A stretch of DNA of 29,390 bases from positions 1 to 29,390 of the IMG/VR virus record IMGVR_UViG_3300025015_000383. One strand, given 5' to 3'. Below the pieces are notes generated by a model. It saw nothing but the letters and a program-made list of their open reading frames with translations. It made no database searches and was not told the DNA's origin. Position numbers and translations under genes: made by a program. Origin of the DNA: a virus (lineage: Duplodnaviria; Caudoviricetes). Shown in pieces: positions 14,686 to 29,390 of the stretch. Numbering within the stretch: the first letter of the stretch is position 1; each line of letters begins with the position of its first letter.

Positions 14686-15729
14686 CTATTTTTTGATTTT
14701 CATAATGTTTTCGATAATATTTTGATTGTCCTCAATCCAGAACGGAGTACTTTGGTATTTTGAATACCTGTCAAAATTTTCTTTTACATACTTTTGAAAC
14801 TTATCTGAATAGGTTGTAATCTGTTTAGCCTTTAGCGGTTCATTACCTTTTAGGTATGCGTTAAAATCATCAGGAGGCATTAAAACAGCGACCGCATGAC
14901 AAAGGCAAATCGGATGCCAGCCTACCCAAACAAATGTTTTTGGATAAGTACCTTCACATTCATCACAAATATCAAATATTTTATGCTGTGCTGAAAGTGA
15001 TATTTTTTTACCAATAACCATCGGAAGTTTCAACCAACGAATATGGTCTGCCAGAAGATACGCCTGATTCGTGTTTGTACGTGCCACACGCATAGCATTT
15101 TTATAAGCCGAGTTATACACTCCCTGGCCTGGTTTATTCTCCAACATTGCCTTACTTGCAATAAGACGGCCATTATTATCACGTACACGACGAAACAAAG
15201 CATCTGGATTTTTAAGGTAAGTTCTAATCCTGCGTGAAATAGTACTGGCACTGTCCCCATTCGCTAATCCGATACCTAAATGAATTTTAAGTTCGCCCCT
15301 TAATTGTTTTGCTACCTGCCAAACTGAATCTGAAAGTGTTTTAGTTCCATGCTTGCCGGAAATAAACGCTTTGAGTGCCGGAATGTTAGGCAAAAAGTAT
15401 TTTGCAGATTGTACTGCTTTAATTTTGCCAATAGTTGAAAGGTAATCTTTTACTATCTGATCATTTTTAGAGTTACTTAGTCCCCAGCTCTTTTCAATAT
15501 CCAGTTCAGTTAAATCCAAAACGTCCTTATGAAACGACTCAATTATGATGTCAATCTTTTTATTGATAGCACCGTTATATCGGAAACTTTTTGAAAATTT
15601 TATAGAAGGATCATTTGAAAGTAAGGCAAATTGTTCAGCAACCCGGTTAAATATTTCCCGGAATTTTTTATCATACTGCAATTGCCGTTTTAAAAACTTA
15701 TTGCGATATTCGAGTGAATGATCAGGCAT
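14686..15729 (-). CDS. Minor head/head morphogenesis protein (SPP1 gp7/Mu gpF-like)
   Basis: LSDSVW, NPDALFRRVRD, GQGVYNSAYKNAMRVARTNTNQAY, CDECEGTYPK...GWHPICLC motifs. Confidence 0.88.
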   Translation of the reverse strand: MPDHSLEYRNKFLKRQLQYDKKFREIFNRVAEQFALLSNDPSIKFSKSFRYNGAINKKIDIIIESFHKDVLDLTELDIEKSWGLSNSKNDQIVKDYLSTIGKIKAVQSAKYFLPNIPALKAFISGKHGTKTLSDSVWQVAKQLRGELKIHLGIGLANGDSASTISRRIRTYLKNPDALFRRVRDNNGRLIASKAMLENKPGQGVYNSAYKNAMRVARTNTNQAYLLADHIRWLKLPMVIGKKISLSAQHKIFDICDECEGTYPKTFVWVGWHPICLCHAVAVLMPPDDFNAYLKGNEPLKAKQITTYSDKFQKYVKENFDRYSKYQSTPFWIEDNQNIIENIMKIKK

Positions 15730-16549
15730 AACCTTCTGATTTAAGTACCAAAGTTACACCATTTTTTAATTGTCCCATCTGATCGCACCATTTAATTGAC
15801 CGTTCAAAATTATCATTTAAGGCCGGTAACATATCATCATAAATTCCAGGCTTTAAATAATTACAAACAGCAACTATCTCTTCCACGTCATTAACATCAA
15901 TAATCCCGTCCATATTAAAGAAGTCGCTAATATTCCTGCACCCATAATAAATCGGTACTGTCCGGGTCTGAAAGCAATCAATAAGTTTTTCGGTAAAGAA
16001 ATTAGCTATTGAAGTATTCTCAATCGCAATATGAAACATGGAATCAAATAGCGGATTTTTTGAGTCACCCAAAATTAACTGCCCTGTATAGTCTGCCTCA
16101 TTCCACGGAACGAATGTATGAAAATGTTTTGCATTGCCGCTTAGATAGAATTTTTTCGGAATGGTTATCATATCCTTTTTTCTCCATAATTCATGCCTTA
16201 ATTCGTGACCTTCTAAAGTCTGAATATTCTTACCCCCGACGACAGTTGAAACGCTAAACTCTTTTCTTGGTTCATAACCTTTGACCCACGTATTCGGAAA
16301 GTGAAATAACCTTGCTTTTGGATTCGTCTGCAGAACTTCTTCCTGGTATGTCAGTACGTAATTATAATAACCTTTATACTTTTGTACAAGTGGAACCATA
16401 GGCGACCGCCACGGCTCTTGTAAGATGATAATACGAAGCGAATCCGGCGGGATATCTTCTAAAGTAAATTGATCTATATAGACATTGACTTCTTTGTTGC
16501 AGTCAATATCTAAATTGATCGGATAGGCGTAATGAAATTTAACCTTCAT
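15722..16549 (-). CDS. GT10-like glycosyltransferase (alpha-1,3/4-fucosyltransferase family)
   Basis: Family motif FHIAIEN...FFTEKLIDCF...VPIYYG. Confidence 0.85.
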   Translation of the reverse strand: MKVKFHYAYPINLDIDCNKEVNVYIDQFTLEDIPPDSLRIIILQEPWRSPMVPLVQKYKGYYNYVLTYQEEVLQTNPKARLFHFPNTWVKGYEPRKEFSVSTVVGGKNIQTLEGHELRHELWRKKDMITIPKKFYLSGNAKHFHTFVPWNEADYTGQLILGDSKNPLFDSMFHIAIENTSIANFFTEKLIDCFQTRTVPIYYGCRNISDFFNMDGIIDVNDVEEIVAVCNYLKPGIYDDMLPALNDNFERSIKWCDQMGQLKNGVTLVLKSEGYA

Positions 16550-17307
16550 GATATAAAGTTCCAGTCATTTAAAAAAACATCTGTTATCTCATTTGCAATA
16601 GTCCCGGAAAACCAAACAGCCGGAGCGCAAACAATTTTATTTGTATTTTCATTCAGGTATGCACCCCAACGGGAATAAGTCGAATTTGCTATTATATTGT
16701 GTGTGCATTTAGTCTGCAGGTAGAAATCAATGTAATCAGGGACACCTTCGCTAAATATTACCCTTTGATCTTTAAATGTCTCTTTACACCACGGAATGTC
16801 ATCAGAGATAATATAAATATGGTCTATCTGAGTCTTTGAATCCATAAAAGATAAAGCCTTTTTATAGTAATTTTCACCACAAATATGACTCGCATTTATA
16901 AGATAGTCACCCCTTCTGACGTGAAGCGAAACACTATTTATAAAATCAAACTTTATACTTTCAAGCATCTCGTGATCTTTGAATAGTTCAATAATTTCCT
17001 TCCGGTATTTGTCGAAATATTTCTCACTTGAAAAGTACCCACCGATCATTAGATTCTTTTGGTAAGGAATAGGGTCATAATTATACCTTCGTTCCTGATA
17101 ATATGCTTCTTGCTTCCAACCTGGCGGTAAATCTTTGAGCTTTCTGAAAACGTTATTCCGGTATGTTGATGGATGAACTCCCTGACTCAATGAACCCATA
17201 TTAAGATTAAAGGCACACTCATCATTATTTTCGAGTGCAAGGGCGTAAGCGGCTGCTATTTGAAACATCCGTCCCCCTAAACCACCACATAACATTGCTG
17301 AAATCAT
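16546..17307 (-). CDS. GT11 glycosyltransferase (alpha-1,2-fucosyl/colitosyltransferase family)
   Basis: GGLGGRMFQ, GYFSSEKYF, SLHVRRGDY, ISDDIPWCK, IIANSTYSRWGAYL motifs. Confidence 0.9.
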   Translation of the reverse strand: MISAMLCGGLGGRMFQIAAAYALALENNDECAFNLNMGSLSQGVHPSTYRNNVFRKLKDLPPGWKQEAYYQERRYNYDPIPYQKNLMIGGYFSSEKYFDKYRKEIIELFKDHEMLESIKFDFINSVSLHVRRGDYLINASHICGENYYKKALSFMDSKTQIDHIYIISDDIPWCKETFKDQRVIFSEGVPDYIDFYLQTKCTHNIIANSTYSRWGAYLNENTNKIVCAPAVWFSGTIANEITDVFLNDWNFIS

Positions 17308-18443
17308 CTGTTTAAAATTTCTATTATAAAGTCCATATCCTTTTCGCTTAAATCCTGATGATTAGGCAGATAAAATCCAAAGTTATGAATTAAATCAGCA
17401 TTTGGATATTTATAATTTCCATGTTTTTTCATCCAGAATGGTTGTTTTCCGATTGACCCCGCTATCAGTGGCCTGGTTACAACTCCATTTTCCTGCAGTT
17501 CCCTGACTATCCGGTCTTTTTTAATACTCACAACAGGATAGGCAAAATTTGAAACATAACCCCTTTCTTTAAGAATCAGAATATTATCTTTGATATGTTT
17601 CAGGTAGTACCGAAAATTATAGTTTCTTTTTTTGGAAAACCGAGCGAGTTTATCCAATTGTCTGAGTCCGATAAATGCCTGCAGATCAGTTGACCTTAAA
17701 TTAAGTCCCGGATAATAGAAAGTATAAAGAGAATTGAAATCTTCAACGTTCCACTTCTTTTTATGCCGCTGCGTTGTCTGGGCATCCCAATCACGATCCC
17801 ATCCGTGGTTACGCATCGAAACAAGAAAGTTATATAATTCGGTGTCGCTTGTATTTATAAAACCTCCCTCAATTGTACTCAAATGATGCCCATAATACAT
17901 GGAAAATACAGACGAATCGCCATACCGTCCCAGCATCTCAGCGCCAATACGTGAACCCATGCTCTCGCAGTTATCTTCAATTAATATAACATTAAATTCC
18001 TTGCATAGATTAACGATACTATCCATATCCGGGATTAATCCAAGGGGCGCAACGGAAATAAATATATCAGGCTTAAACTCGGCAAATATTTCTCTTAACT
18101 CTTTCAGGTCACATGACAGGTCCCTGAGATTGCAATCACAAAGCCGAACATCATAACCTAATAACATCGGAGAACTGACATCCGTGACCCAGCTCAATGC
18201 CGGAACCACTATCTTAGGATTATAACCAAGTATTTCCTTATATGCTGCCAAAAGCAAGAGAATACCTGACGATCCCGAATTGACAAAAACAGAATATTCA
18301 GTTCCGACCTTCTTTGCCCACTTAGATTCAAGTTCTTTTGTAAGGGGCCCTTTTGTTAGCTGTGGAATAGGGTCTTTTTGCAGCCATTCGATCAGTGCGT
18401 TGATATCTTCCCGGTCTATTGTATCACTTACAAGGTTTATCAT
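17304..18443 (-). CDS. colD: PLP-dependent DegT-family enzyme, ColD-like GDP-4-keto-6-deoxymannose 3-dehydratase
   Basis: VNSGSS, VPALSW, EDNCESMG, SMYYGHHLSTIEGG (His where aminotransferases have Lys), RNHGWDR, YPGLNLR; no Fe-S cysteine cluster. Confidence 0.7.
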   Translation of the reverse strand: MINLVSDTIDREDINALIEWLQKDPIPQLTKGPLTKELESKWAKKVGTEYSVFVNSGSSGILLLLAAYKEILGYNPKIVVPALSWVTDVSSPMLLGYDVRLCDCNLRDLSCDLKELREIFAEFKPDIFISVAPLGLIPDMDSIVNLCKEFNVILIEDNCESMGSRIGAEMLGRYGDSSVFSMYYGHHLSTIEGGFINTSDTELYNFLVSMRNHGWDRDWDAQTTQRHKKKWNVEDFNSLYTFYYPGLNLRSTDLQAFIGLRQLDKLARFSKKRNYNFRYYLKHIKDNILILKERGYVSNFAYPVVSIKKDRIVRELQENGVVTRPLIAGSIGKQPFWMKKHGNYKYPNADLIHNFGFYLPNHQDLSEKDMDFIIEILNR

Positions 18444-18907
18444 CTCTTTAAATTTAAATAAGTTGGTTTCCCGGAATAGATAATTTCTGACAAGTTAAAA
18501 CCTTCTTCCGGCACTAAAAAATTAATATTTTTGAACTGCTTTAATATCTCATGATCTGAAGCATCATGACTAAATCCCTCATGAGAGTAATCCTGACCCC
18601 TACCGGCTCCTGCAAGTATTACCGGGATGCTCTCATGGTCGAGGTATAGCCGAATCGCTTCCATTGGTCTGAAAATAAGAAATGGCGTGATTGTGTAAAC
18701 TACCGGGATACGACCCGACAAAGCTAATCCGACTGCCATAGTTATTGCTGCCTGCTCCGCTGCACCAACATTATAAAACTGATCCGGCATCTCTGATCTT
18801 ATACGGTCAGCATAAAAATAACCAAGGTCAATAGAAATAAGAATAATATTTTTATCCTTAACCATTAAATCATAAAGAGAATCAAAAAAGTACTTTCGCT
18901 GATTCAT
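18440..18907 (-). CDS. Transketolase-like pyrimidine-binding subunit (short, lacks the C-terminal domain)
   Basis: DLGY, FYNVGAAEQAAITMAVGLALSG, PFLIFRPMEAIR, GFSHDASD. Confidence 0.85.
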   Translation of the reverse strand: MNQRKYFFDSLYDLMVKDKNIILISIDLGYFYADRIRSEMPDQFYNVGAAEQAAITMAVGLALSGRIPVVYTITPFLIFRPMEAIRLYLDHESIPVILAGAGRGQDYSHEGFSHDASDHEILKQFKNINFLVPEEGFNLSEIIYSGKPTYLNLKR

Positions 18908-19451
18908 TTTTTCTTATTTTATGATCATATCTACTATGACATGGTACACACATTCTTTTAAAATCAGACTTATCTCTTATATATTTCCCTGAAAGATTTG
19001 CCCAATGATATTTTCTATTTGAGTCACTAAGTCCGCAAACTTCACATCCTATTGGTTGTCCCAAATGTTTTGTTACCCAGTCATGGATACCATAATAACC
19101 TACCTTTTCGCCTTTCCATTTAGGATGTTTCGTTTCATCCATTCCAATTCTCGACCTTCCATCATAAGCACCAAAACAATTGCGTGAACAAAATATTTTT
19201 TCACCCCAACGTTTTATCCCATAAGAAGAAGCGACACCTTTTTTATTATAACTGGCAATATTATAATATTTTTTACCACACTCTAAACAATATTTATATT
19301 TTTCCGTTACTCTTTGATCTATCTGTTTCCTTTTACCACGGATAGCTTCAAAATAGCAATCTCTTGAACAAAATTTAGTTTTCCAGTTTTGATTTTTAGG
19401 AGAAAAATCAACTCCGCATTGTTTACATTTTAGTATTCTCATTGTTCTCAT
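18882..19451 (-). CDS. Zinc-finger/His-Me (HNH-like) endonuclease, probably a free-standing homing endonuclease
   Basis: Two CxxC...FCSxxC repeats, HPKWKG, then IHDWV...CEVC...YHWAN...CVPCH; start placed at ATG 19451, coupled to the uORF stop. Confidence 0.7.
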   Translation of the reverse strand: MRTMRILKCKQCGVDFSPKNQNWKTKFCSRDCYFEAIRGKRKQIDQRVTEKYKYCLECGKKYYNIASYNKKGVASSYGIKRWGEKIFCSRNCFGAYDGRSRIGMDETKHPKWKGEKVGYYGIHDWVTKHLGQPIGCEVCGLSDSNRKYHWANLSGKYIRDKSDFKRMCVPCHSRYDHKIRKNESAKVLF

Positions 19452-19590
19452 AAAAATTGCCCATACCAATTACAGAGGCGATCCAGTCGTGTAATATTAC
19501 ACAATTTGGCAATGTAACTGATATGGGACTTTTTGTTTTTCATAACTGAATCGCATTACAAATATATAAAATAATCAAATCAACTGCAAA
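19448..19590 (-). promoter_or_regulatory. Structured leader B: promoter + 31-aa uORF + interleaved stems, upstream of the HNH-like gene
   Basis: TTTG (19590-19587)-20 nt-TATATTTG (19566-19559); GCGATTCAGT/ACTGGATCGC; CCCATATCAGTTACA/TGTAATTGGTATGGG; uORF 19543-19448. Confidence 0.7.
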
Positions 19591-19598
19591 TTTTCTTC

Positions 19599-20135
19599 TC
19601 ATGATATGTAAAAATATACTGCCCCGTAATCCGGGAGGCTGTTAAATGTTATTTCCGGATGCCTTAACTTAAATTCTGCCAAAGCCGTAACAACACCCTC
19701 AATATTTACCGTATCATCCATTACAACAAATAACCTCTTCTTCTTTGCGAATAATTCTGCAAGTTGTAAATCTAAAGTGACATATTCAAAAGAATGGTTG
19801 CCATCAATAAATAAAACGTCTGGCTCAATAAGTTCATACAATTTCCCTTTCAAAAACGCTTCATCAGTCATATCAAAATGAAACACATTATCACAATCTT
19901 TTGTATTATTATAAAATACCTCTCTTATTGCAGTAAATAAATCACCTTTTCCAACTCCATTCCCTGATGTATGTCCATCCTCAATAAATGGATCAATAGA
20001 ATAGAATGTCTTGTCAGGGAATTTATTGCTTAACATTGCGATTCCCTCCCCATCATATGAACCTATTTCTAAATATACCTGATTACTGTATAAGTTATCA
20101 GTTATTATTCCTTCGTATAATTGCCTCGCTAACAT
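19599..20135 (-). CDS. Class I SAM-dependent methyltransferase (Methyltransf_24-like, probable sugar O-methyltransferase)
   Basis: YLEIGSYDGEG, YSIDPF, DVLFIDGNHSFEYVTLD, VMDD motifs. Confidence 0.85.
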   Translation of the reverse strand: MLARQLYEGIITDNLYSNQVYLEIGSYDGEGIAMLSNKFPDKTFYSIDPFIEDGHTSGNGVGKGDLFTAIREVFYNNTKDCDNVFHFDMTDEAFLKGKLYELIEPDVLFIDGNHSFEYVTLDLQLAELFAKKKRLFVVMDDTVNIEGVVTALAEFKLRHPEITFNSLPDYGAVYFYIS

Positions 20136-20713
20136 CAGATAGTTATATAATGTGCTGATAATCCTTTTAATCCATAATCTTCCACTTTTGTATATCTTAT
20201 TTCAATCTTTGGGAATATATGTATAACATTCCATTGCATCCAATCTTCTATAGAATCATAAGCTGAAAACCCGTTCCAATTAATGTAAACCTTTAAGTTT
20301 GTGACATTATATTTTCTAATCACATTTGCAGACTCGTAGATAATGCCTTCAAAAGCCTCCCCGTCAGAAATAAGACAATAGACGTTTTTTGTCCTGTCTG
20401 CCAGTGCCATCCCTACTGATATACCAAGTCCCATTCCGAGTGACCCGGTTGAACAATATATTTTATCTTCTAAATCCCGATGCGGATGTGTGCCATGTTT
20501 TAAGTAAAGTTTTTCAGCATCAAAACCATAGTATTTTTCAAGGATGCAATAAAGAGATAGTCCAGCATGTCCGCAGGAAAGGACAAATGGCTCATCTTCT
20601 TTTTTAATCCGGTAAATCTCATCAATTATCCCTAAAGATGTATAACAAGATCCAAGGTGAGATAATTTGTATTTTTTAGCTATTTCTGTTATTCTGCCAA
20701 GCATTTTCTCCAT
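20135..20713 (-). CDS. Transketolase-like ThDP-binding N-terminal subunit (short)
   Basis: SHLGSC, LSCGHAG, HPHRD, STGSLGMGLGISVGMALA, SDGEAFEG...N ThDP motif. Confidence 0.87.
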   Translation of the reverse strand: MEKMLGRITEIAKKYKLSHLGSCYTSLGIIDEIYRIKKEDEPFVLSCGHAGLSLYCILEKYYGFDAEKLYLKHGTHPHRDLEDKIYCSTGSLGMGLGISVGMALADRTKNVYCLISDGEAFEGIIYESANVIRKYNVTNLKVYINWNGFSAYDSIEDWMQWNVIHIFPKIEIRYTKVEDYGLKGLSAHYITI

Positions 20714-20758
20714 TTATGCGATGCTTCCTTTCTTATTAATTTCATGTCTTGTGAGTTT

Positions 20759-21499
20759 TTAATAGCGTGACATTGATTCATAAGTTCTTTTTAATCCTTC
20801 ATACATTCCAATATCTTTTACTCCCTCTTTACATACCCAATCTTCATTGTCATAGATCCTTAAAGTCCCTGATGTGTATTTCAGTTTCTTCCCGGAAATC
20901 TGTTCTAACATTCTTACAACTTCGAGGTTTGATATTTTGATCCCAGCACCTATTCGAGTCGCCCCGGCAAATAATGCTTCAACTGCACAGTCAATATAAA
21001 CCCAGTCATGGCAGGCTCTTTCATCAAGTATCATCTCTGCACCTGTATTCAGACAATCTATGATGGTAGGAATAAACCGGTGTTTCTGTTCACCGGGGCC
21101 ATAAATAGAATAAGGCCGGACGTTAATCACATTCTTATACATCCCTGCCAGTTGTTCACCGCAAAGCTTCGTTATGGAATAATATGTAGGCTTATCAAAG
21201 AAAGTTACTGATGAAGTCGATAGATTATAAAATGTCTTATAATTAAATTCTTTAGCGGCCTCCAAAAGATTGTATGTTCCGATAATGTTAGCATTTACCA
21301 CTCCTATAAAATCTCTCTGATAATACTGGTTGCCATAGGCTGCGAGGTGGATAATCACATCAGGATTATTTAAATAAAATAACTGCTTGAGTTGCTCAAT
21401 TGACTGGTGCCGTGGGATGGAAAATACTGATTTACCCTCCAGGTACTTTGTTATCGCAGTTCCTAAAAAACCTGACTGCCCGGAAATATAATAATTCAT
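20759..21499 (-). CDS. NAD-dependent epimerase/dehydratase/reductase (extended SDR)
   Basis: GQSGFLG, IIHLAA, NIIGTYNLLEA, YSITK, RPYSIYGP; start reassigned to ATG 21499, which gives an ATGA overlap with the upstream gene. Confidence 0.88.
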   Translation of the reverse strand: MNYYISGQSGFLGTAITKYLEGKSVFSIPRHQSIEQLKQLFYLNNPDVIIHLAAYGNQYYQRDFIGVVNANIIGTYNLLEAAKEFNYKTFYNLSTSSVTFFDKPTYYSITKLCGEQLAGMYKNVINVRPYSIYGPGEQKHRFIPTIIDCLNTGAEMILDERACHDWVYIDCAVEALFAGATRIGAGIKISNLEVVRMLEQISGKKLKYTSGTLRIYDNEDWVCKEGVKDIGMYEGLKRTYESMSRY

Positions 21500-21726
21500 A
21501 ACAGTCCCCCGTCCGGATGATAGTGATCGTAAATAAGAATTCCTATTACAAATATAGCCCATGCAAGTGTAGGAATCCATGCATATTTCGTATTGCCACT
21601 ATAATCCTCTGCCATACCATAAAACATTAATCCCCCCAGTATTATAAGTAACGCAATAACAAAAACTGCAACTATATTTTCCCATATAGTCCCCCACTTT
21701 ACTTCCTTTAATCTTATTGTTTTCAT
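21496..21726 (-). CDS. Small membrane protein (two hydrophobic helices)
   Basis: IVAVFVIALLIILGGLMFYG and AWIPTLAWAIFVIGILIY; tightly packed in the operon. Confidence 0.65.
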   Translation of the reverse strand: MKTIRLKEVKWGTIWENIVAVFVIALLIILGGLMFYGMAEDYSGNTKYAWIPTLAWAIFVIGILIYDHYHPDGGLL

Positions 21727-21736
21727 AATTTTGATA

Positions 21737-23014
21737 TTAAAATTTCTTTACAACTTTTTCAATGTATTCAAATATTTCACCTCCATAATGCGGCGCAGCT
21801 CCAATAAAAAATACTTTATCGAGTACTTTGTTTGCCTCTGGATAGTTTCTGTAATCATCATGAAAAGCGTAACCGGGATGCATCAGAATATTACCTGTAA
21901 AATAATTCCTTGTCTGGATGAGGTGTTTTTCAAGGTGTGCGACTAACTTATTTTTTAATCCGTCCTCGCAAATAAAAGGAGTCCCAAACCAACAAACATC
22001 AGCCCTGCCTAATGTCTGAACCCCATGCACTCCTGGAATCTTACTTACAATTTTCTCTATTATTGTTTTTGAATGTTTTCGCCGGGCCTCAATCTCTGTA
22101 AATTTGTCGAGCTGGACCAATCCTATTGCACCCTGTAAATCAAGTGGTTTAAGATTATATCCCATGTTTGAAAATACGTATTTATGATCGACAATCCCGT
22201 CATAAGCTTCGAGCCATTTATCAAACCGGTGGCCGCATGATCCTTTCAGTAACATATTATCTGAACCGATACAATTACAATCCCGTCCCCAATGAGCTAT
22301 ACTTGTCATAATTTCCATCAGGCCTTTATCATTAGTACTGATCATACCTCCTTCCCCGGTACATAGTGTATGCGCGGCATAAAATGAACAGGATGAAGCG
22401 ATACTATATTCATTCAGGTATTTCCCGTTCCACTTTGTCCCCAGAGAATCGCAGTTATCCAGGATCGGTTTCAATCCATACACATCACATAAATACAAGA
22501 GTCGGTCAATGTCCGGCGGATTACCAAGTACAGGACTTAAGAATATCGCTTTGGTACGATATCCTATCTTTGATTCAATTTGATCTAAGTCAAAATTCAG
22601 GGTGTTCCATTCAATATCTACAAATACCGGGTTGAGCCTATTTTGATAAAGCACAGATATTGTTGTCGGAAATCCAACTGATGAAACAATAACCTCATCT
22701 CCGTCCTGCCAGTTATAATATTTTTTTAGAGCGGCAATCATAACCAAATTAGCCGATGATCCAGAATTGACCATTAAAGAATAACCAGAATTAAATTTCC
22801 TACTGAATGCCTTTTCAAAAACATTAACCTGGCCGCCTGATGAAATCCACGTACCGTTAAGGAATGTATTTATTGCCGCTTCACTTTCTTTATTGTCCCA
22901 GTATGGACCGGAATAAGGAATGACAGTTTTACCTGGTTTGAAGTTCACAGAATTATAAAGATATGGTGCAACATGATTGCCAACTAAAGATTCTATTTTA
23001 TCAGGTAATATCAT
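21737..23014 (-). CDS. rfbH: RfbH/DdhC-like CDP-4-keto-6-deoxyglucose 3-dehydrase (E1)
   Basis: VNSGSSANL, GFPTT, DNCDSLG, SFYAAHTLCTGEGG (catalytic His), WGRDCNC...CGHRF Fe-S cysteines, DHKYVFSNMGYNLK. Confidence 0.85.
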   Translation of the reverse strand: MILPDKIESLVGNHVAPYLYNSVNFKPGKTVIPYSGPYWDNKESEAAINTFLNGTWISSGGQVNVFEKAFSRKFNSGYSLMVNSGSSANLVMIAALKKYYNWQDGDEVIVSSVGFPTTISVLYQNRLNPVFVDIEWNTLNFDLDQIESKIGYRTKAIFLSPVLGNPPDIDRLLYLCDVYGLKPILDNCDSLGTKWNGKYLNEYSIASSCSFYAAHTLCTGEGGMISTNDKGLMEIMTSIAHWGRDCNCIGSDNMLLKGSCGHRFDKWLEAYDGIVDHKYVFSNMGYNLKPLDLQGAIGLVQLDKFTEIEARRKHSKTIIEKIVSKIPGVHGVQTLGRADVCWFGTPFICEDGLKNKLVAHLEKHLIQTRNYFTGNILMHPGYAFHDDYRNYPEANKVLDKVFFIGAAPHYGGEIFEYIEKVVKKF

Positions 23015-23748
23015 AGATCAAGTGTTAAAATATGTTTTGCTCTATATTCCTTATTTTGTCTTAATATTTCAAAAACTCTTTGGTTTATCTCCCATTTTGA
23101 CGGGTCCCATGCCGTTGAATGATGCTGATGAAGCACAATAGGGTTATCGGTTATTTCAACCTTCAATCCTAACATTGCTATCTGATGAAGGAAGTAATTA
23201 TCTTCATAAGCGCAACCATCTTTAAACCGTTCATCAAAACCATTTAACTTAATCAGGTTCTTTGTTGTAATTGCTGAACAGAAGTTATAACCTACCGGTC
23301 TTATCTCAGGATGATTATACCACGATCTTTGCCCATCCGTAGTGCATGGCCTATTCAGCATCTCGAATGACCCAGGCGTTTCGTCCTTGCCTAAAGAATA
23401 ACAACCAAAGGAAATATATGTTTTGTCCGTTACCTGTTTGGCACGGCTTAATATGTCCCCGTGATGATAGCACTCTGACTGTTGCATGATAATAATATCC
23501 GGGTTTTCCTGAATTGCATAGAATAAACCCATGTTAATAATGCCTGTATAGATATGCACCCACGGTTCGGTAGTGAATTTAATTACCCGGACTTTGTAAG
23601 GCAAATCAGGGAATATAATATCTTCTTTGCTGTTATCATCAACTATAATCACACTGAAATCTTTAGGATCGTATTGAAGTAACGACTTCAAAGTCCATTT
23701 TAAGGATTCCGGGCGGTTGATGTATGTCATTAAAATAACTACTTTCAT
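23011..23748 (-). CDS. GT2/GT7C-like glycosyltransferase
   Basis: TYINR, IIVDDNS, NGFDERFKDGCAYEDNYF, LHQHH. Confidence 0.85.
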   Translation of the reverse strand: MKVVILMTYINRPESLKWTLKSLLQYDPKDFSVIIVDDNSKEDIIFPDLPYKVRVIKFTTEPWVHIYTGIINMGLFYAIQENPDIIIMQQSECYHHGDILSRAKQVTDKTYISFGCYSLGKDETPGSFEMLNRPCTTDGQRSWYNHPEIRPVGYNFCSAITTKNLIKLNGFDERFKDGCAYEDNYFLHQIAMLGLKVEITDNPIVLHQHHSTAWDPSKWEINQRVFEILRQNKEYRAKHILTLDL

Positions 23749-24131
23749 GATTCCATTTCTAATTCGTTTCCGGTTAAAGCAAAGTAAAGGTTCTGAAGCT
23801 GATGGACATATTTAAATTCAGTCCAGCAACAATCATCAAAATTAAACTTAGGGTAAAAGAGTTTGCAATCCGTTTCTATTACAAATCTGTCATCCCCCTC
23901 CCACCCTATGCCCTCTTTATGTTCAAATACCTGACCATTAAGTCCAATGCTTTTAAATCCGAATTTTTCTAACCACAACTCGGTTAATGGGACAGGAATT
24001 GCCCAACCTGGATGTTCAGAAAGCGCATAAAATTCACTGGCTTTTATAGGCCTTATCTCATTAGGGAACTTTCCCCCTCCTGCAATTAGAAGCTCTACTA
24101 TATTCCCGATTCTTAATTCCTGTATTTTCAT
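23745..24131 (-). CDS. Conserved phage hypothetical protein
   Basis: ELRIGN...PVPLTELWLEKFGF...YVHQLQNLYFALTGNEL pattern, common in Bacteroidota phages. Confidence 0.7.
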   Translation of the reverse strand: MKIQELRIGNIVELLIAGGGKFPNEIRPIKASEFYALSEHPGWAIPVPLTELWLEKFGFKSIGLNGQVFEHKEGIGWEGDDRFVIETDCKLFYPKFNFDDCCWTEFKYVHQLQNLYFALTGNELEMES

Positions 24132-24760
24132 CTGAATATTCCTCCCATACTATGTGATTCCCGACAAGTTTTGAAGTAATACTGCTCATCCGCTGGCATA
24201 TCTTCAAATTTAAAGTAATACCACGGCATATGGCGACAGGTATATGGCCTGTTAGTCCTTATCCCTTTAGTTGAATGAAAAGGTACTTTGTATAATGCAA
24301 ACGTGGTATCGACAGGTGCGTCATAATACCTGCCATCAAGTGGATTCTGCCAGAATTGTATTTCCCAGTCAAGAGGACAAAAAGGTGTTTTTGGAAGGTC
24401 TTTTATTTCAAGTGAAAACCCGCATTTATCAAATTGAGGGTAACGATTTAATCCTTCCTCCAAAACACTCAGAAAGTCATCCGGAATGCCTGTTAAGTCC
24501 AAGTCAGGATCGGTGACAATGTAATTACCTGTTATTCCGAGCTTCTCCAAAAGGTTCTGTTCCCAGACTACCTTGTAACCGTAATTCTGAGGCATGCGGA
24601 TAATCTGATAAGGAGTTGTTTTGTAGTATTCTAATAATGGCGGGTAATCAGAATTGTTATCGACAAAAATAGGATCAACATTTATCTCCCAAAGCCAATC
24701 CGCAATTTTTACGGGCAGTTGCAAGCGATTGTACACAATGATAAATGCCTTACACTTCAT
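24128..24760 (-). CDS. GT-A fold (GT2-like) glycosyltransferase
   Basis: IIVYNR, FVDNNSDYPPLLEYY, YIVTDPDL (DxD), APVDTTFALY, RHMPWY; start reassigned to ATG 24760. Confidence 0.75.
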   Translation of the reverse strand: MKCKAFIIVYNRLQLPVKIADWLWEINVDPIFVDNNSDYPPLLEYYKTTPYQIIRMPQNYGYKVVWEQNLLEKLGITGNYIVTDPDLDLTGIPDDFLSVLEEGLNRYPQFDKCGFSLEIKDLPKTPFCPLDWEIQFWQNPLDGRYYDAPVDTTFALYKVPFHSTKGIRTNRPYTCRHMPWYYFKFEDMPADEQYYFKTCRESHSMGGIFR

Positions 24761-25337
24761 GACAAACAAAATATTCCGGTGTTTCAATCTTCTTACCTTC
24801 AAACTTCCGTAGTTGCTGGATGAACTGATAATCGTGACCATATCCGGCCTTTTCCCATTTCAACTTAAGGCGTGAAGCATGGCAGATATTCGAGGTTCCG
24901 CAATGACCGTACAAAGAAACGTCAATTTGCCGCTCAATGAACTCAGTGCCTGACCATCTGAAGTCGTTAAAATACAGCCAGTTCTCAGTATTATCCATCT
25001 GATCATTGATTTTCCGTAAATGATCCGGGCCATACTTATCGTCATTGTCAATATAGATAATATACTTACCTTTTGCGGCCTCAATACCGGCGTTCCGGGG
25101 TGTATTCGACCATAGCTCTTTACGTTCGACTCTTAAAAGATTAATCCGCTTATCGGTGAAATTGTGCTTAACTACAAATTCAGTTAAAGGGCATCCATCA
25201 GCCACTATGATTAACTCAAAGTTTTCGTATGACTGCTTTAAAACTGATTCCACAGCCCGGATGAGTTTTTTATCTTTGCCGGTCGCTGATCCCGGGTAGT
25301 CGGAAAGCAGGGATGCCATAATCACGCTAAACTTCAT
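24750..25337 (-). CDS. GT2 glycosyltransferase
   Basis: FSVIM, RAVESVLKQSYENFELIIVADG, RNAGIEAAKGKYIIYIDNDD; start reassigned to ATG 25337. Confidence 0.9.
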   Translation of the reverse strand: MKFSVIMASLLSDYPGSATGKDKKLIRAVESVLKQSYENFELIIVADGCPLTEFVVKHNFTDKRINLLRVERKELWSNTPRNAGIEAAKGKYIIYIDNDDKYGPDHLRKINDQMDNTENWLYFNDFRWSGTEFIERQIDVSLYGHCGTSNICHASRLKLKWEKAGYGHDYQFIQQLRKFEGKKIETPEYFVCHEV

Positions 25338-25338
25338 A

Positions 25339-25533
25339 CTATTTCCAATTAGTTGACCTAAATAAAAATCCACATAAAAGATTAATTCCTAAACTCTGCC
25401 AAAAAGTTAGTTTCATTAATCCAAATATTGTTGGCATAAGCCAATTCCAAAGCCACATTACTGGAAATGCCAAAAGAAGTCCAATTCCAATTATTAAAGC
25501 AATTACGCCCAAAATTTTAATTACTTCTTCCAT
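25339..25533 (-). CDS. Small membrane protein
   Basis: MEEVIKILGVIALIIGIGLLLAFPVMWLWNWLMPTIFGLMKLTFWQSLGINLL; start reassigned to ATG 25533. Confidence 0.7.
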   Translation of the reverse strand: MEEVIKILGVIALIIGIGLLLAFPVMWLWNWLMPTIFGLMKLTFWQSLGINLLCGFLFRSTNWK

Positions 25534-25537
25534 CTTG

Positions 25538-25661
25538 TCAGTTATTAAAAGCCCCGCAAACAAAAGGGCTATCAACTACACCCGAGGGGATAATTGCTTT
25601 TGTTTTTGGGGCTGTTACTGTTTTTGATTGCATAGTGTAGTTAATAGCCGTAACAAATTTA
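25538..25661 (-). promoter_or_regulatory. Structured leader C: promoter + 31-aa uORF + interleaved stems, upstream of the membrane protein/GT operon
   Basis: TAAATTTG 25661-25654; GGCTATTAACTACAC/GTGTAGTTGATAGCC; AGCCCC-AA-AAACAAAAG/CTTTTGTTT-GC-GGGGCT; uORF 25633-25538. Confidence 0.7.
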
Positions 25662-25682
25662 CACATTTTTTTGAATAAACAA

Positions 25683-26663
25683 CTAAAGCAAAGAATTTAT
25701 TATATCAACTCTCAAATCATTCACCTTCGATAAAAGCAAGCAATCGCAAACATACTCCCACGCCTCTTTTGTCAATTTAGTTTTATCTGCTTCGCCTGAA
25801 AGAACTGACCTGATCGCTTCGTAATAAGAAGGGCCGTCAGTATAAGGCAATGATCCGGGAGCGTTCCACCATGCAGGAGCAACACACACGGCCCCGAAGT
25901 AAGTCGCCTCAATATATGCGATATTGCTTTTTGCCCTGTTAAATAGATTGTCATGAAGTGGAACATGAAGACAGGACGGGGCCATATCAAAGAGAGTTTT
26001 CATGTACATGGCAATATCCAATGACGGGACGTGTCCTTTGTTATCTGTTTCAGTCAGGAACCAGGGCGAAAACCCGCAAAACATGAATCTCCATTCCGGG
26101 AACTCTTTAGTAGCTTCATTAATCTGCTTGCTGAATGACATCAGGTCAAAGATATGCGCCTCAGGACCACGCCAGACAATATGATTTGTCCGCTTTGGTA
26201 ATTCGGGACGTTTGAATAGCAAGTCATTTAAAGCGTTCGGGACAATATGAATATTCTTGTTAAAATCGCTGTATGCCTGCCTGAGGTATTCCGTTGGCAC
26301 ACTTACAACATCTGCCAGCTGCAGCATTGCTTTTATATTACCCTGAGTCTCAGGGTTGTTATAAAGTGCATAAGTCGGATTCTCAGGATTAAGAGCAAAA
26401 AGGTTATCATCATAGTCCAACCAGATTTTTACACCGCACTGTTTAGCATAACCGCAAACATTAAGCGACTCCTTTGAAAATGCCCTCTGATGGTAAATGA
26501 GATCGAACTGAGTCAAGAATGACCAGTTCATCGGGGCCTGGTTCATCTGTACCAGTGTAATGTTGTGTTTTGTTTTCCTGCGAAGGTCTTTTAAGACTCC
26601 TGCTGAGCGATAAAAACTGCAAGTATCTCCATTTTCAATAGTTAAAAAAAGTACTTCTGCCAT
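25683..26663 (-). CDS. GT-B fold (GT4-like) glycosyltransferase
   Basis: FYR, DYDDNLF, ADVVSVPTEYL, IVPNAL, PLHDNLFNRAKSNIAYIEA motifs. Confidence 0.8.
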   Translation of the reverse strand: MAEVLFLTIENGDTCSFYRSAGVLKDLRRKTKHNITLVQMNQAPMNWSFLTQFDLIYHQRAFSKESLNVCGYAKQCGVKIWLDYDDNLFALNPENPTYALYNNPETQGNIKAMLQLADVVSVPTEYLRQAYSDFNKNIHIVPNALNDLLFKRPELPKRTNHIVWRGPEAHIFDLMSFSKQINEATKEFPEWRFMFCGFSPWFLTETDNKGHVPSLDIAMYMKTLFDMAPSCLHVPLHDNLFNRAKSNIAYIEATYFGAVCVAPAWWNAPGSLPYTDGPSYYEAIRSVLSGEADKTKLTKEAWEYVCDCLLLSKVNDLRVDIINSLL

Positions 26664-26725: not shown

Positions 26726-28180
26726 TTACAAATTATCATTTTCTGACCCGGAAAGCTCCGCCGTGGCATCTGCTTTCATACGCTCCATCTCTACTTTTGA
26801 ATCTTTAACCAAAGGATTCTTTTCTATTGCTGTTTCTTTTGACATTATCCCTCCTGTGACAGCTACCGATAAATTATCAATAATTTCCGTTGTGTTCATT
26901 GGAAGGTAAGGTGTAACCTCAGGCTTCAATTGAACTGTCCTGCATTCACTTGCCAGCGAAGTGTCGATTAGAGCTCCTATGGCCGCCTTGATGATATTTA
27001 ACCGCCTTTGAAGTCCTATCCCGAACGTTTCCTCTTCCATGCGAACTGCCATATGCGGATCTGAGAAAATCATTTCTGCTGCAAATCCTGACATCTGGCC
27101 TATTGTCATCATTTGGTCAAATGATATGTTCGGAGTCTGCGACATTGCATGAATGAACTTTTCAAGATTCGTCTGCTCCAGGCTTATCGACTGCGGCTCT
27201 GAGGCTAAATTAGCGTAACCGGCCGTTGCCCCGTTCTCGAGTTGCATAACTGACCCCTGAGCGTTGTCAATTATCTCGCCCTGGATTTCACCGGCCACGG
27301 TGAAGATAGGCGCCCCGAACTTATCGTTCATCCCGCCGTGATTCGAAGTCAATGTTTCGTGACGGTCAATCATTGACTGCACGTTATGCCATACCGGTTT
27401 TTTCTGATTGTAGTATTCAACTAGAATCTTCTTTGCGGGATTCGGGACCGGATTAGCGGGGATATAGTCGCCTGTCTCCACTGATTTGCCAATTGCATCA
27501 GGATCAAGTGTCCACTGGCCATCTTTTTTGATGTACTTGTAAGTAAATTCAGCAGTGTAAATATCCGAATGCTCAATATCTTTGCCGTTCTCGGATAACT
27601 TATAATCCCTGCGAAATGATATCATCGTTCCGTTACTGTCAAACAGTGGGTAAAGAGTGTCACCAAGTTCCGGGGAGACAATCTTGCTGTTTAGTGTAAA
27701 CTTGTATTTTGGATCATTCGTTTCAACATAATACCAAATAACAGCGACTTCCAGCTCAGACAACTTCCGGCGCAGGATCTCTTTATTCTTGTAATCCATT
27801 TTATTGTCGTTCTGGATCCTCTCTACCAACTTAACAAGCTGTTTTTCTTTTTCGCTTTCAGTATCCCATATTACATTTGTTTTAACAGGATGCGAAAGTG
27901 TGAACCCGACCCGGCGTTCTGTGATTATGTTCTGCCAGGGAATGCCGACTCTCACAACATCTATCCACTTATCGGTCCAGTTAACATTACCTGCAGAGTC
28001 TTTTGTGCCTGAATCAATTTTGATCTTACGCATTGGCCGGATAGCCTTATCAAAGACATCATGAGTATCGACATTGTACTGTTTAATAGCATCTGCCTGA
28101 ACCCCGGTATCAACCTGGCGGGTGAATAGCTTATCAATCGCTTTAAAGTCCTGTGATTTAATTACGTCAAGTGCTGCCAT
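26726..28180 (-). CDS. Portal protein (SPP1 Gp6-like)
   Basis: 484 aa after the terminase; LYPLFD, SQTPNISFD...SGFA, LQRRLNII, GIMSKETAI...P...E.ER motifs. Confidence 0.9.
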   Translation of the reverse strand: MAALDVIKSQDFKAIDKLFTRQVDTGVQADAIKQYNVDTHDVFDKAIRPMRKIKIDSGTKDSAGNVNWTDKWIDVVRVGIPWQNIITERRVGFTLSHPVKTNVIWDTESEKEKQLVKLVERIQNDNKMDYKNKEILRRKLSELEVAVIWYYVETNDPKYKFTLNSKIVSPELGDTLYPLFDSNGTMISFRRDYKLSENGKDIEHSDIYTAEFTYKYIKKDGQWTLDPDAIGKSVETGDYIPANPVPNPAKKILVEYYNQKKPVWHNVQSMIDRHETLTSNHGGMNDKFGAPIFTVAGEIQGEIIDNAQGSVMQLENGATAGYANLASEPQSISLEQTNLEKFIHAMSQTPNISFDQMMTIGQMSGFAAEMIFSDPHMAVRMEEETFGIGLQRRLNIIKAAIGALIDTSLASECRTVQLKPEVTPYLPMNTTEIIDNLSVAVTGGIMSKETAIEKNPLVKDSKVEMERMKADATAELSGSENDNL

Positions 28181-28200: not shown

Positions 28201-29390
28201 TTAAATTTTTCCTAACAGGCTTGAAAGGTTTGTTTTTTTACGATTATGTCCGATAACCTCTTCTAGAATCACATAACGCCCTGCGTCAATACTGTTATGT
28301 ACTAATATGCCATTTGCGAAATATTCATGCACTCCTTCGACGTGGATATCGAATACCTGCATCTTTTCGCCTTTTACGCAATGCTTTTGCTTTACAGTTT
28401 GGATGACAGTATTTTGATATTCCTGAATGTCTTGTTTGATATTCTCTTCCGCAAAATTGACAGATAAGCGTTTTTTGTCCTTTATCCTTCCATCCTTCTT
28501 TACTATGTTCTGAGTGCCATTCTCTTCCTTCTTTTGAACCATGCCATTCTTTTGCTTTTTCAATACCCGCATTATGAAATTTATCAAACCATTCTTTGTC
28601 TCGCGAAAACCGCGACTTCCCATGTTCTGACAAATGCTGATGCTTTTCTTTAATTTCAATATTTTCGGGTTGATTATCCCATGTATTTTCGTTTTTATGA
28701 TGAACAGTAAACCCCTTAGGAACTTTGCCATTATAAAATTCCCAGACTGCGACATGCATCCGTTTTGTTCCTCTTGAAAAGTATCGTTCTCTTGGATAAA
28801 GTCTGTATGTTTTCCCATTAAATGTTTGCTCAGGAATACCTGCATCCCCGATTCTAATTGTGAAATCTGTTCCCATCCTTGCGTTGTTTTAATTAAATGA
28901 TCTTCTGTACAATGCAAAGATAATGAAAACATATCGAATTGTATCGAATAGTTATTAACTTGTTTTAATCCATTATGATATAATTTTATAACCCGACTAA
29001 ATCCTTCCGAAGTTAAAACATCATCAGATGTTTTTATATCACAAATATTTTTTATTCCTTCTTTCGTAATTATTTTAGTATCTGAAACAAAACAGTGATT
29101 AAACTCATCAACTGGCTGGTTAAGATATCTACCTTCCTTATCCTGATCATAAACGTAATTATCTATTTCCTTCTTAATATTAGTCGACCTCTTGGTGATT
29201 TTGAGATTATACTCTTTCATCTTTGCCAGCCCGGCATTGATTGATCCCTGAAACTTTTCAACCGCATGGATATTTAACCCTGCATTATGTATCTCATCTA
29301 TTAGTCTGGGGTCTGCACTTTCAGAAATAATCTTTTTATTTTGACATTCTGATTTTAAGACTTTAATAATATCATTTGTCAACATTTTAG
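28201..29390 (-). CDS. terL: Terminase large subunit, C-terminal nuclease domain, intein-containing; 5' end outside the window
   Basis: SESADPRLIDEI, GSINAG, EIDNYVY, PVDEFNH|SIDAGRY after removing the intein; the frame stays open to the window edge. Confidence 0.92.
   Translation of the reverse strand, partial: KMLTNDIIKVLKSECQNKKIISESADPRLIDEIHNAGLNIHAVEKFQGSINAGLAKMKEYNLKITKRSTNIKKEIDNYVYDQDKEGRYLNQPVDEFNHCFVSDTKIITKEGIKNICDIKTSDDVLTSEGFSRVIKLYHNGLKQVNNYSIQFDMFSLSLHCTEDHLIKTTQGWEQISQLESGMQVFLSKHLMGKHTDFIQENDTFQEEQNGCMSQSGNFIMAKFLRGLLFIIKTKIHGIINPKILKLKKSISICQNMGSRGFRETKNGLINFIMRVLKKQKNGMVQKKEENGTQNIVKKDGRIKDKKRLSVNFAEENIKQDIQEYQNTVIQTVKQKHCVKGEKMQVFDIHVEGVHEYFANGILVHNSIDAGRYVILEEVIGHNRKKTNLSSLLGKI
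28294..29094 (-). mobile_element. Intein (267 aa) in the terminase nuclease active-site motif
   Basis: Starts CFVSDTKIIT (block A); TEDHLI (block B); VFDIHVEG (block F); YFANGILVHN followed by Ser+1 (block G). Confidence 0.93.
28325..28876 (-). CDS. HNH homing endonuclease nested out-of-frame inside the intein
   Basis: MHVAVWEFYNGKVPKGFTVHHKNENTWDNQPENIE...H HNH motif; C-terminal CQFC...YCHPNC zinc finger; own ATG and TGA. Confidence 0.88.
   Translation of the reverse strand: MGTDFTIRIGDAGIPEQTFNGKTYRLYPRERYFSRGTKRMHVAVWEFYNGKVPKGFTVHHKNENTWDNQPENIEIKEKHQHLSEHGKSRFSRDKEWFDKFHNAGIEKAKEWHGSKEGREWHSEHSKEGWKDKGQKTLICQFCGREYQTRHSGISKYCHPNCKAKALRKRRKDAGIRYPRRRSA

Follow-up and report, generated by a model that had tools for sequence, protein, structure and literature searches.

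A phage terminase intein with a separate, conserved HNH endonuclease gene in its −1 reading frame

The large terminase gene (terL) of a 29,390-nt phage fragment (hereafter the window; positions 1–29,390 of IMG/VR record IMGVR_UViG_3300025015_000383) is interrupted by an intein whose DNA, read in the −1 frame, also encodes a separate, conserved HNH endonuclease. With a probability of roughly 80%, we read this protein as a likely homing endonuclease that likely has its own promoter and would copy the insert into intein-free terL alleles; splicing, expression and cleavage are predicted from sequence comparison. An earlier note on this DNA had proposed a dual-coded selfish element with uncoupled nuclease expression, a proposal that fits the frame-specific selection, the stop avoidance, the patchy distribution and the predicted internal promoter laid out below.

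The window has 37.5% GC and its own record is rated 56% complete. Its long genes lie on the minus strand, as do all window features described here. The last part of the TerL N-extein, an RNase H-like nuclease domain, occupies 29095–29390 (Pfam Terminase_3C, 33.7 bits), and the 30-aa C-extein, which begins at Ser+1 and carries the Asp of the conserved xIDA motif, occupies 28201–28293. The ATG at 29385, previously listed as the start of this ORF, is present and is internal rather than the true terL start: the gene begins beyond the window edge and forms a 662-codon open frame in locus L001. Against annotated phage records, the best 20 listed matches to the window's TerL are all TerLs of Bacteroides phages (37–38%). 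Directly downstream of terL is an SPP1-type portal gene (26726–28180; Pfam SPP1_portal). Between the portal and head-morphogenesis genes lies a run of about 18 genes (15722–26663) that includes two glycosyltransferases, two aminotransferases and one nucleotide-sugar epimerase, a sugar-modification cluster within the packaging module. The head-morphogenesis (MuF-like) protein (14686–15729) also matches a PHROG labelled Bxa ADP-ribosyltransferase, at profile positions 229–384 of 869, probably through a shared head domain.

The insert in terL is a class-1 intein by its motifs, by the predicted Hint fold of its two ends and by its clean absence from homologues, and is predicted to splice. It comprises 267 aa in frame with TerL (28294–29094, 801 nt) and splits the TerL nuclease motif at the junction DEFNH|SIDAGRY. 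Cys1, at 29094, is invariant in 32 of 32 aligned inteins; the other motifs are T63-E-D-H66 (block B TxxH), G73-W74, VFD of block F and the terminal HN|S. Block F/G, QVFDIHVEGVHEYFANGILVHN, ends at 28294, and the Ser+1 codon is AGT. These coordinates and motifs, which the earlier note had given as a complete intein, were all reproduced on the minus strand. Pfam Intein_splicing scores 28.1 bits on this frame, under its cut-off of 35.8, and no nuclease family in Pfam matches it, in agreement with the earlier observation that the intein frame lacks a nuclease motif. In the AF2 model (32-row alignment), the splicing domain consists of residues ~1–90 and ~229–267 and the middle has no confident fold, block pLDDT being ≥90 at both ends and <50 at 94–123 and 157–226. 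Foldseek returned 38 matches to this model at E ≤ 0.001, the best being the gp41-1 intein (6qaz, E 4.5e-8). A fractured gene with a split intein was ruled out for the window, as the 801 nt hold no stop.

Within the same DNA, an ORF of 552 nt runs from an ATG at 28876 to a TGA at 28325 and encodes a 183-aa HNH endonuclease. The start is offset 509 nt from the listed ATG at 29385, which places the gene in the −1/+2 frame, and the ORF with its zinc finger was recovered exactly as first described. It matches phrog_15471, its sole Pfam match at E ≤ 0.1 is HNH_3 (48.4 bits, cut-off 24.8), and its AlphaFold model reaches pLDDT 90 (26-row alignment). In the catalytic core (residues 39–81, 28634–28762), H59, H60, N68 and N72 are invariant and H81 nearly so. 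A C-terminal four-cysteine zinc finger (C139, C142, C157 and C161; 28394–28462), invariant in 26 of 26 aligned sequences and weakly matching the YacG finger (Z 4.2), likely binds DNA. The homing enzyme I-HmuI (1u3e) is the top match by profile (E 0.0044), by Foldseek (E 0.026) and by VIA-align (Z 6.8), all of them modest, with an rmsd of 3.4 over 79 aligned residues; the match covers HNH residues 1–91 only, and the remainder consists of helices and the Cys4 finger. By its core and catalytic residues the protein is likely I-HmuI-like (HNH_3), with a predicted homing role. An identical HNH protein occurs in five viral contigs, which may derive from the same source as the window.

The HNH start codon is made from the intein's Gly-Trp codons (GGA TGG, 28874–28878), combining the A of the codon before Trp74 with TG. 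The usual HNH stop in the family is a TGA within the block-F Tyr/Phe-Asp codons; the window has TTC GAT there and its HNH reads 8 codons further, to CAT GAA, so that its overlap with block F is real. With the start in Gly-Trp and the end past block F, the earlier claim that the HNH ORF overlaps conserved intein segments stands.

The −1 arrangement recurs widely. Searches that began from the HNH yielded 47 and 78 viral loci, 69 metagenome loci and 22 phage records; 232 loci were collected, and removal of duplicates, weak matches and L134 left 102 non-redundant elements. In this collection of terL intein homologues, which the earlier note had called for, the alternate HNH ORF is conserved: 90 of the 102 carry it at −1 in an open intein frame, 6 at +1, 1 in frame and 5 as free-standing genes outside any intein. 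Because searches of this kind are blind to inteins that lack an HNH, we also scanned by the intein C-terminal motif, obtaining at least 127 loci and, once 49 with too little flank and 17 duplicates were dropped, a set of 61. Among the matches listed, 59 of the 61 have an intact −1 HNH (57, plus 2 in which only the terminal stop was counted), one is decayed, one is a mini-intein and none is in frame; the motif was derived from the window's family, so these counts describe close kin only. The mini-intein (L294) is 129 aa long and the decayed intein (L308) has a deleted, stopped HNH; both sit at the same motif. A single-protein scan for inteins gave 9 loci, the intein alignment being too variable to serve as a scan query.

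The insertion points cluster near the final conserved Asp of the TerL nuclease domain and fall into five registers, which hold 50, 24, 3, 3 and 1 of 85 elements; 4 of 85 lack a register. The sole in-frame member (L046, 2653–3564) is inserted two residues past this Asp. No longer protein with an in-frame HNH fusion was found among 1083 candidates, a weak negative since L046 is itself such a fusion, and a GTDB genome scan for the family gave one 20-residue match that was dropped as a non-member. Several loci vary on the theme. In six (L035, L036, L038, L041, L042 and L045) the HNH frame opens much earlier, with an ATG at about +86 to +101, so that the HNH overlaps most of the N-terminal splicing domain and has an extra N-terminal CxxC motif. 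In the TerL of Vibrio phage 1.245.O (L240, 1500–3200), an intein occupies a similar motif and an HNH/zinc-finger ORF lies at −1; stops interrupt this intein frame and its C-half carries a separate annotation, possibly a fractured, split-intein state. The terminase of L044 (224–3724) holds a second, canonical-looking intein in its N-terminal half, as judged by eye.

Five named phages carry the element: phiCDHM19, phiCD119, LS06-2018-MD07, Highwayman and TJE1. The HNH ORF is unannotated in the GenBank records of all five, so such nucleases are missed and the inteins around them would be read as decayed; the word intein is absent from the four papers found in a search on phiCDHM19, phiCD119 and TJE1. 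The phiCD119 and phiCDHM19 inteins are 99.2% identical, and six one-base gaps break the terL frame of phiCD119, which may be errors in that record.

These homologues bear on a reading of the window as an ordinary in-frame HNH intein disrupted by an assembly frameshift, or as an intron removed at the RNA level, to which we assign a negligible probability. It has a precedent in the one in-frame relative, L046. The homologues refute it: they keep the −1 ORF, which excludes an assembly frameshift, and both halves lie in one open frame in all 79 of the 90 −1 elements that have both intein ends called. Indels that would restore an in-frame HNH, a check the earlier note had named, were sought in assembled contigs and none was found; contigs of runs X1 and X3, which may come from the same material as the window and do not count as independent reads, span the element with no differences or gaps. 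An Rfam scan of the window, in which a group I intron ribozyme core was sought, gave no family at the gathering score, and a group I intron reading is unnecessary because the protein-splicing motifs are complete.

Several observations support two separately maintained frames. First, the earlier statement that both frames are stop-free over 552 nt was confirmed, and re-encoding tests place this beyond chance. Re-encoding the intein-frame protein gave a mean of 13.9 stops in the HNH frame, with none of 20,000 trials open, and re-encoding the window HNH gave a mean of 3.2 stops in the intein frame against 0 observed (P(0) = 0.02). Nineteen ordinary genes of the window have 12.7 stops per 183 codons in the corresponding frame, with a longest open run of 77 codons. 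Stop avoidance in the intein frame, a prediction of the earlier note, was borne out across 55 related loci, which hold 0 stops against 253.7 expected; because the loci are related, this and the other counts and p-values given here overstate independence. The free-standing HNHs of L236 and L237 are also stop-free in the corresponding frame, showing that openness alone can arise without an intein.

Second, selection differs between the frames. Pooled omega, over 15 hand-picked pairs that share members, is 0.22 for the HNH frame, as predicted of a gene under purifying selection, 1.01 for the overlapping intein frame and 0.33 for the N-terminal splicing region. An omega of 1.01 together with zero stops indicates that the intein frame is kept open while its residues over the HNH are free. 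Third, in 33 close elements, entropy by codon position is 0.76/0.71/1.27 and 0.52/0.33/1.25 in the two splicing regions and 0.73/1.18/0.82 within the overlap, so that the most variable position shifts from the intein third to the HNH third. For the middle part, these results reverse the description of the HNH as overprinted: what is conserved there is the HNH protein, which has free-standing relatives, and the intein text over it is filler under no constraint. Only at the ends of the overlap, at the start, the stop and the predicted promoter, is the sequence truly constrained in both frames.

The predicted promoter is a Bacteroidota −7 element, TATCTTTG (28915–28922), within splicing-domain codons, identified by enrichment and by the published consensus. 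It lies 46 nt before the HNH ATG and predicts a transcript start near 28910 with a 34-nt leader; no clear −33 element was seen in the window. The Bacteroidota promoter is reported, in the part of PMC6847099 available to us, to carry TANNTTTG at −12 to −5, refined to TAHHTTTG, and initiation there is aided by A at −3, −6, −12 and −13. The window's HNH start has A at −3, −12 and −13 and no Shine-Dalgarno site, and its predicted leader is close to the medians of 24–32 nt given for Bacteroidota in the accessible text of PMC9723704. The other 29 gene starts of the window, inspected by eye, are mostly without Shine-Dalgarno sites, which together with the Bacteroides phage TerL matches points to a Bacteroidota host.

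Among close relatives, TAnnTTTG stands at this place in 17 of 37, against 0.81 expected under a codon-aware null (maximum 5 in 2000 simulations), and, among the matches listed, in 26 of 47 members of the intein-first set, which overlaps in part with these relatives. A TATAAT-like box stands there instead in 6 of 37 against 2.4 expected, a weak excess. Shine-Dalgarno use also separates the two groups, at 0 of 80 starts in TAnnTTTG loci versus 5 of 32 in TATAAT-like loci (p = 0.0015). Sigma-70 scoring of 17 loci, chosen afterwards and without a null, gave 8 with at least 10 of 12 and 9 with at most 9 of 12; phiCDHM19 has TTGACA-17-TATAAT, 12 of 12 for sigma-70, 69 nt before its HNH ATG. In L024 and L033, TTGACA-18-TA(C/G)AAT ends 7–9 nt before the HNH ATG, which suggests leaderless HNH transcripts. 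The sigma-70 scan of the window region gave 6 sites against 5.6 expected, none assignable to the HNH.

Alternatively, the HNH might have no promoter of its own and be translated from the long terL message, through internal initiation or −1 ribosomal frameshifting. We consider this unlikely. Frameshifting is common in phages in general, and 20 of the 37 close relatives are without TAnnTTTG; against this stand the enrichment of the motif in the other 17 and an HNH ATG kept well above codon expectation. Among the matches listed, 47 of 60 −1 elements of the intein-first set have ATGG at the HNH start, against about 37% expected from codon usage (13.5 of 37); the presence of the ATG in 33 of 33 close elements follows from how that set was selected and is no test. 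Frameshifting in particular is hard to reconcile with L082 and its kin, which have a stop in the HNH frame directly before the ATG and so no upstream window for a shift, and no canonical slippery heptamer was seen by eye upstream of the HNH ATG.

The long mRNA may also carry a hairpin that pairs the promoter region with the AUG (28869–28930; z −2.6 against shuffles). It would mirror I-TevI control, T4-type intron endonuclease genes having their own promoter and hairpin (PMC2988022, available text), and is a weak lead: in the window, 14% of codon-aware nulls fold as well. The hairpin is good there and in the nearest relatives of the window, but against that null only 2 of the 16 loci with the promoter reach p ≤ 0.05. 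The AUG hairpin is 72% paired versus 50–57% when slid, with little two-sided change.

The distribution of the element points to likely mobility, being patchy and horizontal, with cleavage and homing predicted. The close-TerL set comprised 24 of 29 loci, four identical to the window and one short locus having been left out, and one of the 24 ends before the site; of the 23 with a readable site, several of them near-duplicates, 20 are empty and 3, the window included, hold the intein. In 40 pairs, HNH identity of at least 60% is found in exteins of at most 35% identity; L001 and L007, for example, share 23% in the extein, 76% in the splicing domain and 64% in the HNH. Across 62 elements, the identities of extein, splicing domain and HNH are correlated overall (rho ~0.6), so much of the inheritance is vertical; L052, L184, L215 and L222, with wrong automatic intein ends, and L126 were left out of this comparison. 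A low-depth X1 contig of a related phage lacks a net 801 nt at the site and reads NHAIDGG.

At +1, 16 of the 20 empty alleles have Ala and one has Ser. Of the elements, 92 of 93 have Cys or Ser at +1, a count that is partly circular because intein ends were called by that residue. Homing would consequently have to co-convert the +1 codon. Phage introns are known to co-convert their flanks, according to the available text of PMC2988022, and that of PMC11855218 mentions the idea for inteins as speculation.

It is very improbable that the window copy was once mobile and no longer homes, its HNH being intact through recent ancestry only. As such a history would have it, distant terminases yielded no near-identical intein, and identity in the closest horizontal pairs is 60–76%. 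The catalytic and zinc residues, the ATG and the promoter motif of the window are nevertheless intact, omega against L006 is 0.10, and run X1 holds the empty allele of a related phage.

Free-standing relatives of the HNH sit beside terminase genes. Fifteen distinct phage records with the HNH were fetched, 6 with it in an intein and 9 with it free, and all 9 free HNHs adjoin terminase genes: 8 lie between terL and the next structural gene (one of them antisense and one read from translation only) and 1 lies before terS. A quick maximum-likelihood tree of 93 HNHs, in which 34 of 90 forks are open, requires 6 changes for the free forms, of which strong branches force at least 2, and 3 changes for the +1 forms. 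We take exchange between free and embedded states to be likely from these placements; with so many forks open, the tree does not fix the direction free-to-embedded, and the in-frame case, L046, is not rooted well enough to be called derived. In L204 (500–2100), a free HNH directly follows an intein-less terL (NH|ALD) and is nested among intein-borne HNHs in the window's broad clade, and may represent an escape from an intein.

The same neighbourhood would suit a domesticated packaging cofactor of the terminase, kept for the benefit of the phage like HK97 gp74; HNH proteins of that type stimulate terminase end cleavage (PMC10448857, available text). We rate this as quite improbable. In its favour are the 9 of 9 fetched free-standing relatives beside terminase genes and the link raised for brucellaphages in the available text of PMC4422536. 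It is opposed by the lack of the insert at the site in 20 of 23 close TerLs, by the spread of the element across very distant terminases, by the existence of decayed and mini forms and by a homing enzyme as the nearest solved structure.

For the homing element that we favour, we propose the following course. A free-standing HNH beside terL would have entered a mini-intein at the HNH's own target. The long terL mRNA would yield a precursor that splices out the 267 aa, with the unstructured middle of ~140 aa as a tolerated loop. The host sigma-ABfr would start a short mRNA near 28910, on which ribosomes would begin at the AUG without a Shine-Dalgarno site. During co-infection, the free HNH would nick or cut an intein-free copy of terL close to the DxxNH|AIDA motif, and repair would copy the intein together with the +1 codon, changing the usual Ala to the Cys or Ser that splicing needs. 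The intein would offer a place that does no harm within a target both essential and conserved, and the nuclease would supply mobility. The element is probably functional and would resemble an intron-style homing element in its mode of action, its nuclease being expressed separately and its base being an intein.

A broader reading, which we hold tentatively and at a shade under even odds, is that this is a stable, widespread two-gene parasite and not a passing intermediate. Its HNH promoter, start and stop would be written into splicing codons, its promoter re-tuned to the host sigma factor between phyla (TAnnTTTG versus TTGACA/TATAAT) and its +1 nucleophile brought along, and the family would hold all states of capture: free beside terL, −1, +1, in frame, decayed, mini and fractured. 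Such a parasite would make it possible to test directly how inteins acquire their nucleases and by what means a nuclease hidden in another frame is expressed. Recent papers, in the parts available, treat out-of-frame intein nucleases as rare and as possible intermediates and leave their mode of expression open; in the window's family the out-of-frame state is the rule (59 of 61 among the matches listed), is old and under selection, and is accompanied by a predicted host-matched promoter.

The layout itself is already known, from a brucellaphage TerL (2015) and two preprints (2025 and 2026). The earlier note had left open whether it had been reported; it has, including a terminase intein with an HNH (PMC4422536, available text). 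The basic layout has thus been in print since 2015, and the TerL nuclease-domain family and the predicted promoter add detail. In the brucellaphage TerL, the intein-encoded HNH gene lies out of frame within the intein, and brucellaphages Tb and Pr (JN939331, ORF07/ORF08) resemble the window in having a TerL, a contiguous intein and a same-strand HNH and zinc-finger gene in another frame. In Tb, however, the insertion is in the N-terminal half of TerL (NRAD|CVIIDD) and not at the nuclease-domain site, and the HNH gene, at +1, starts with GTG and places its zinc fingers ahead of the core, whereas the window's gene is at −1 and has the HNH first. The brucellaphage HNH scores only 17 bits against the profile of the window's family. 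Membership in the brucellaphage element was rejected, as site, frame, domain order and score all disagree. No selection or promoter analysis was found in the available text of PMC4422536.

Gosselin, Arsenault and Gogarten (bioRxiv 10.1101/2025.01.02.630785), in the text available, describe frame-3 and antisense homing endonucleases in actinobacteriophage inteins and propose invasion by a free-standing endonuclease with a possible later shift into frame. Like the window, their inteins include an Endonuclease VII-like enzyme in frame 3, the same offset, over an unfolded in-frame middle. Their HNH inteins are in frame and their second ORFs 'typically lie outside' the splicing domain, unlike the window's HNH start, stop and predicted promoter, which lie within it; the word promoter is absent from the main text. 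The window shows the features of their non-canonical inteins, namely a contiguous intein frame, an endonuclease in another frame and an unfolded middle. It falls outside the frame-3 endonuclease VII subtype, with HNH_3 as sole Pfam match and I-HmuI as top fold. Phillips et al. (bioRxiv 10.64898/2026.09.14.751524) report a cyanobacterial DnaX intein with a LAGLIDADG enzyme in a +2 ORF, which shares with the window a frame-dependent dN/dS pattern and the coexistence of empty, mini and full alleles and differs in its LAGLIDADG enzyme, chromosomal gene and Shine-Dalgarno start, with no promoter described in the part seen.

The ShiLan domain (PMC11855218, 2025) is, in its available text, likewise an out-of-frame HNH with zinc fingers in an open host frame, with free-standing relatives that adjoin the host gene; it has no intein, its host is a non-essential methylase and its mode of translation is left open. 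Fractured genes with split inteins (PMC2677866, 2009) and T4-type intron endonuclease genes (PMC2988022) also have a separately expressed nuclease, located between or within the splicing elements, but, as far as their available texts go, the host frame is broken in the former and removed as RNA in the latter, whereas the window's stays one open frame. In the openly accessible literature we found neither this HNH family at the nuclease-domain site nor any internal promoter described for inteins of the kind; the supplements of the two preprints could list TJE1 or similar members. The window's element belongs to a described class of non-canonical inteins, outside both the EndoVII and the brucellaphage subtypes, to which the present analysis adds a predicted −7 promoter motif in splicing-domain codons and free-standing relatives beside terL.
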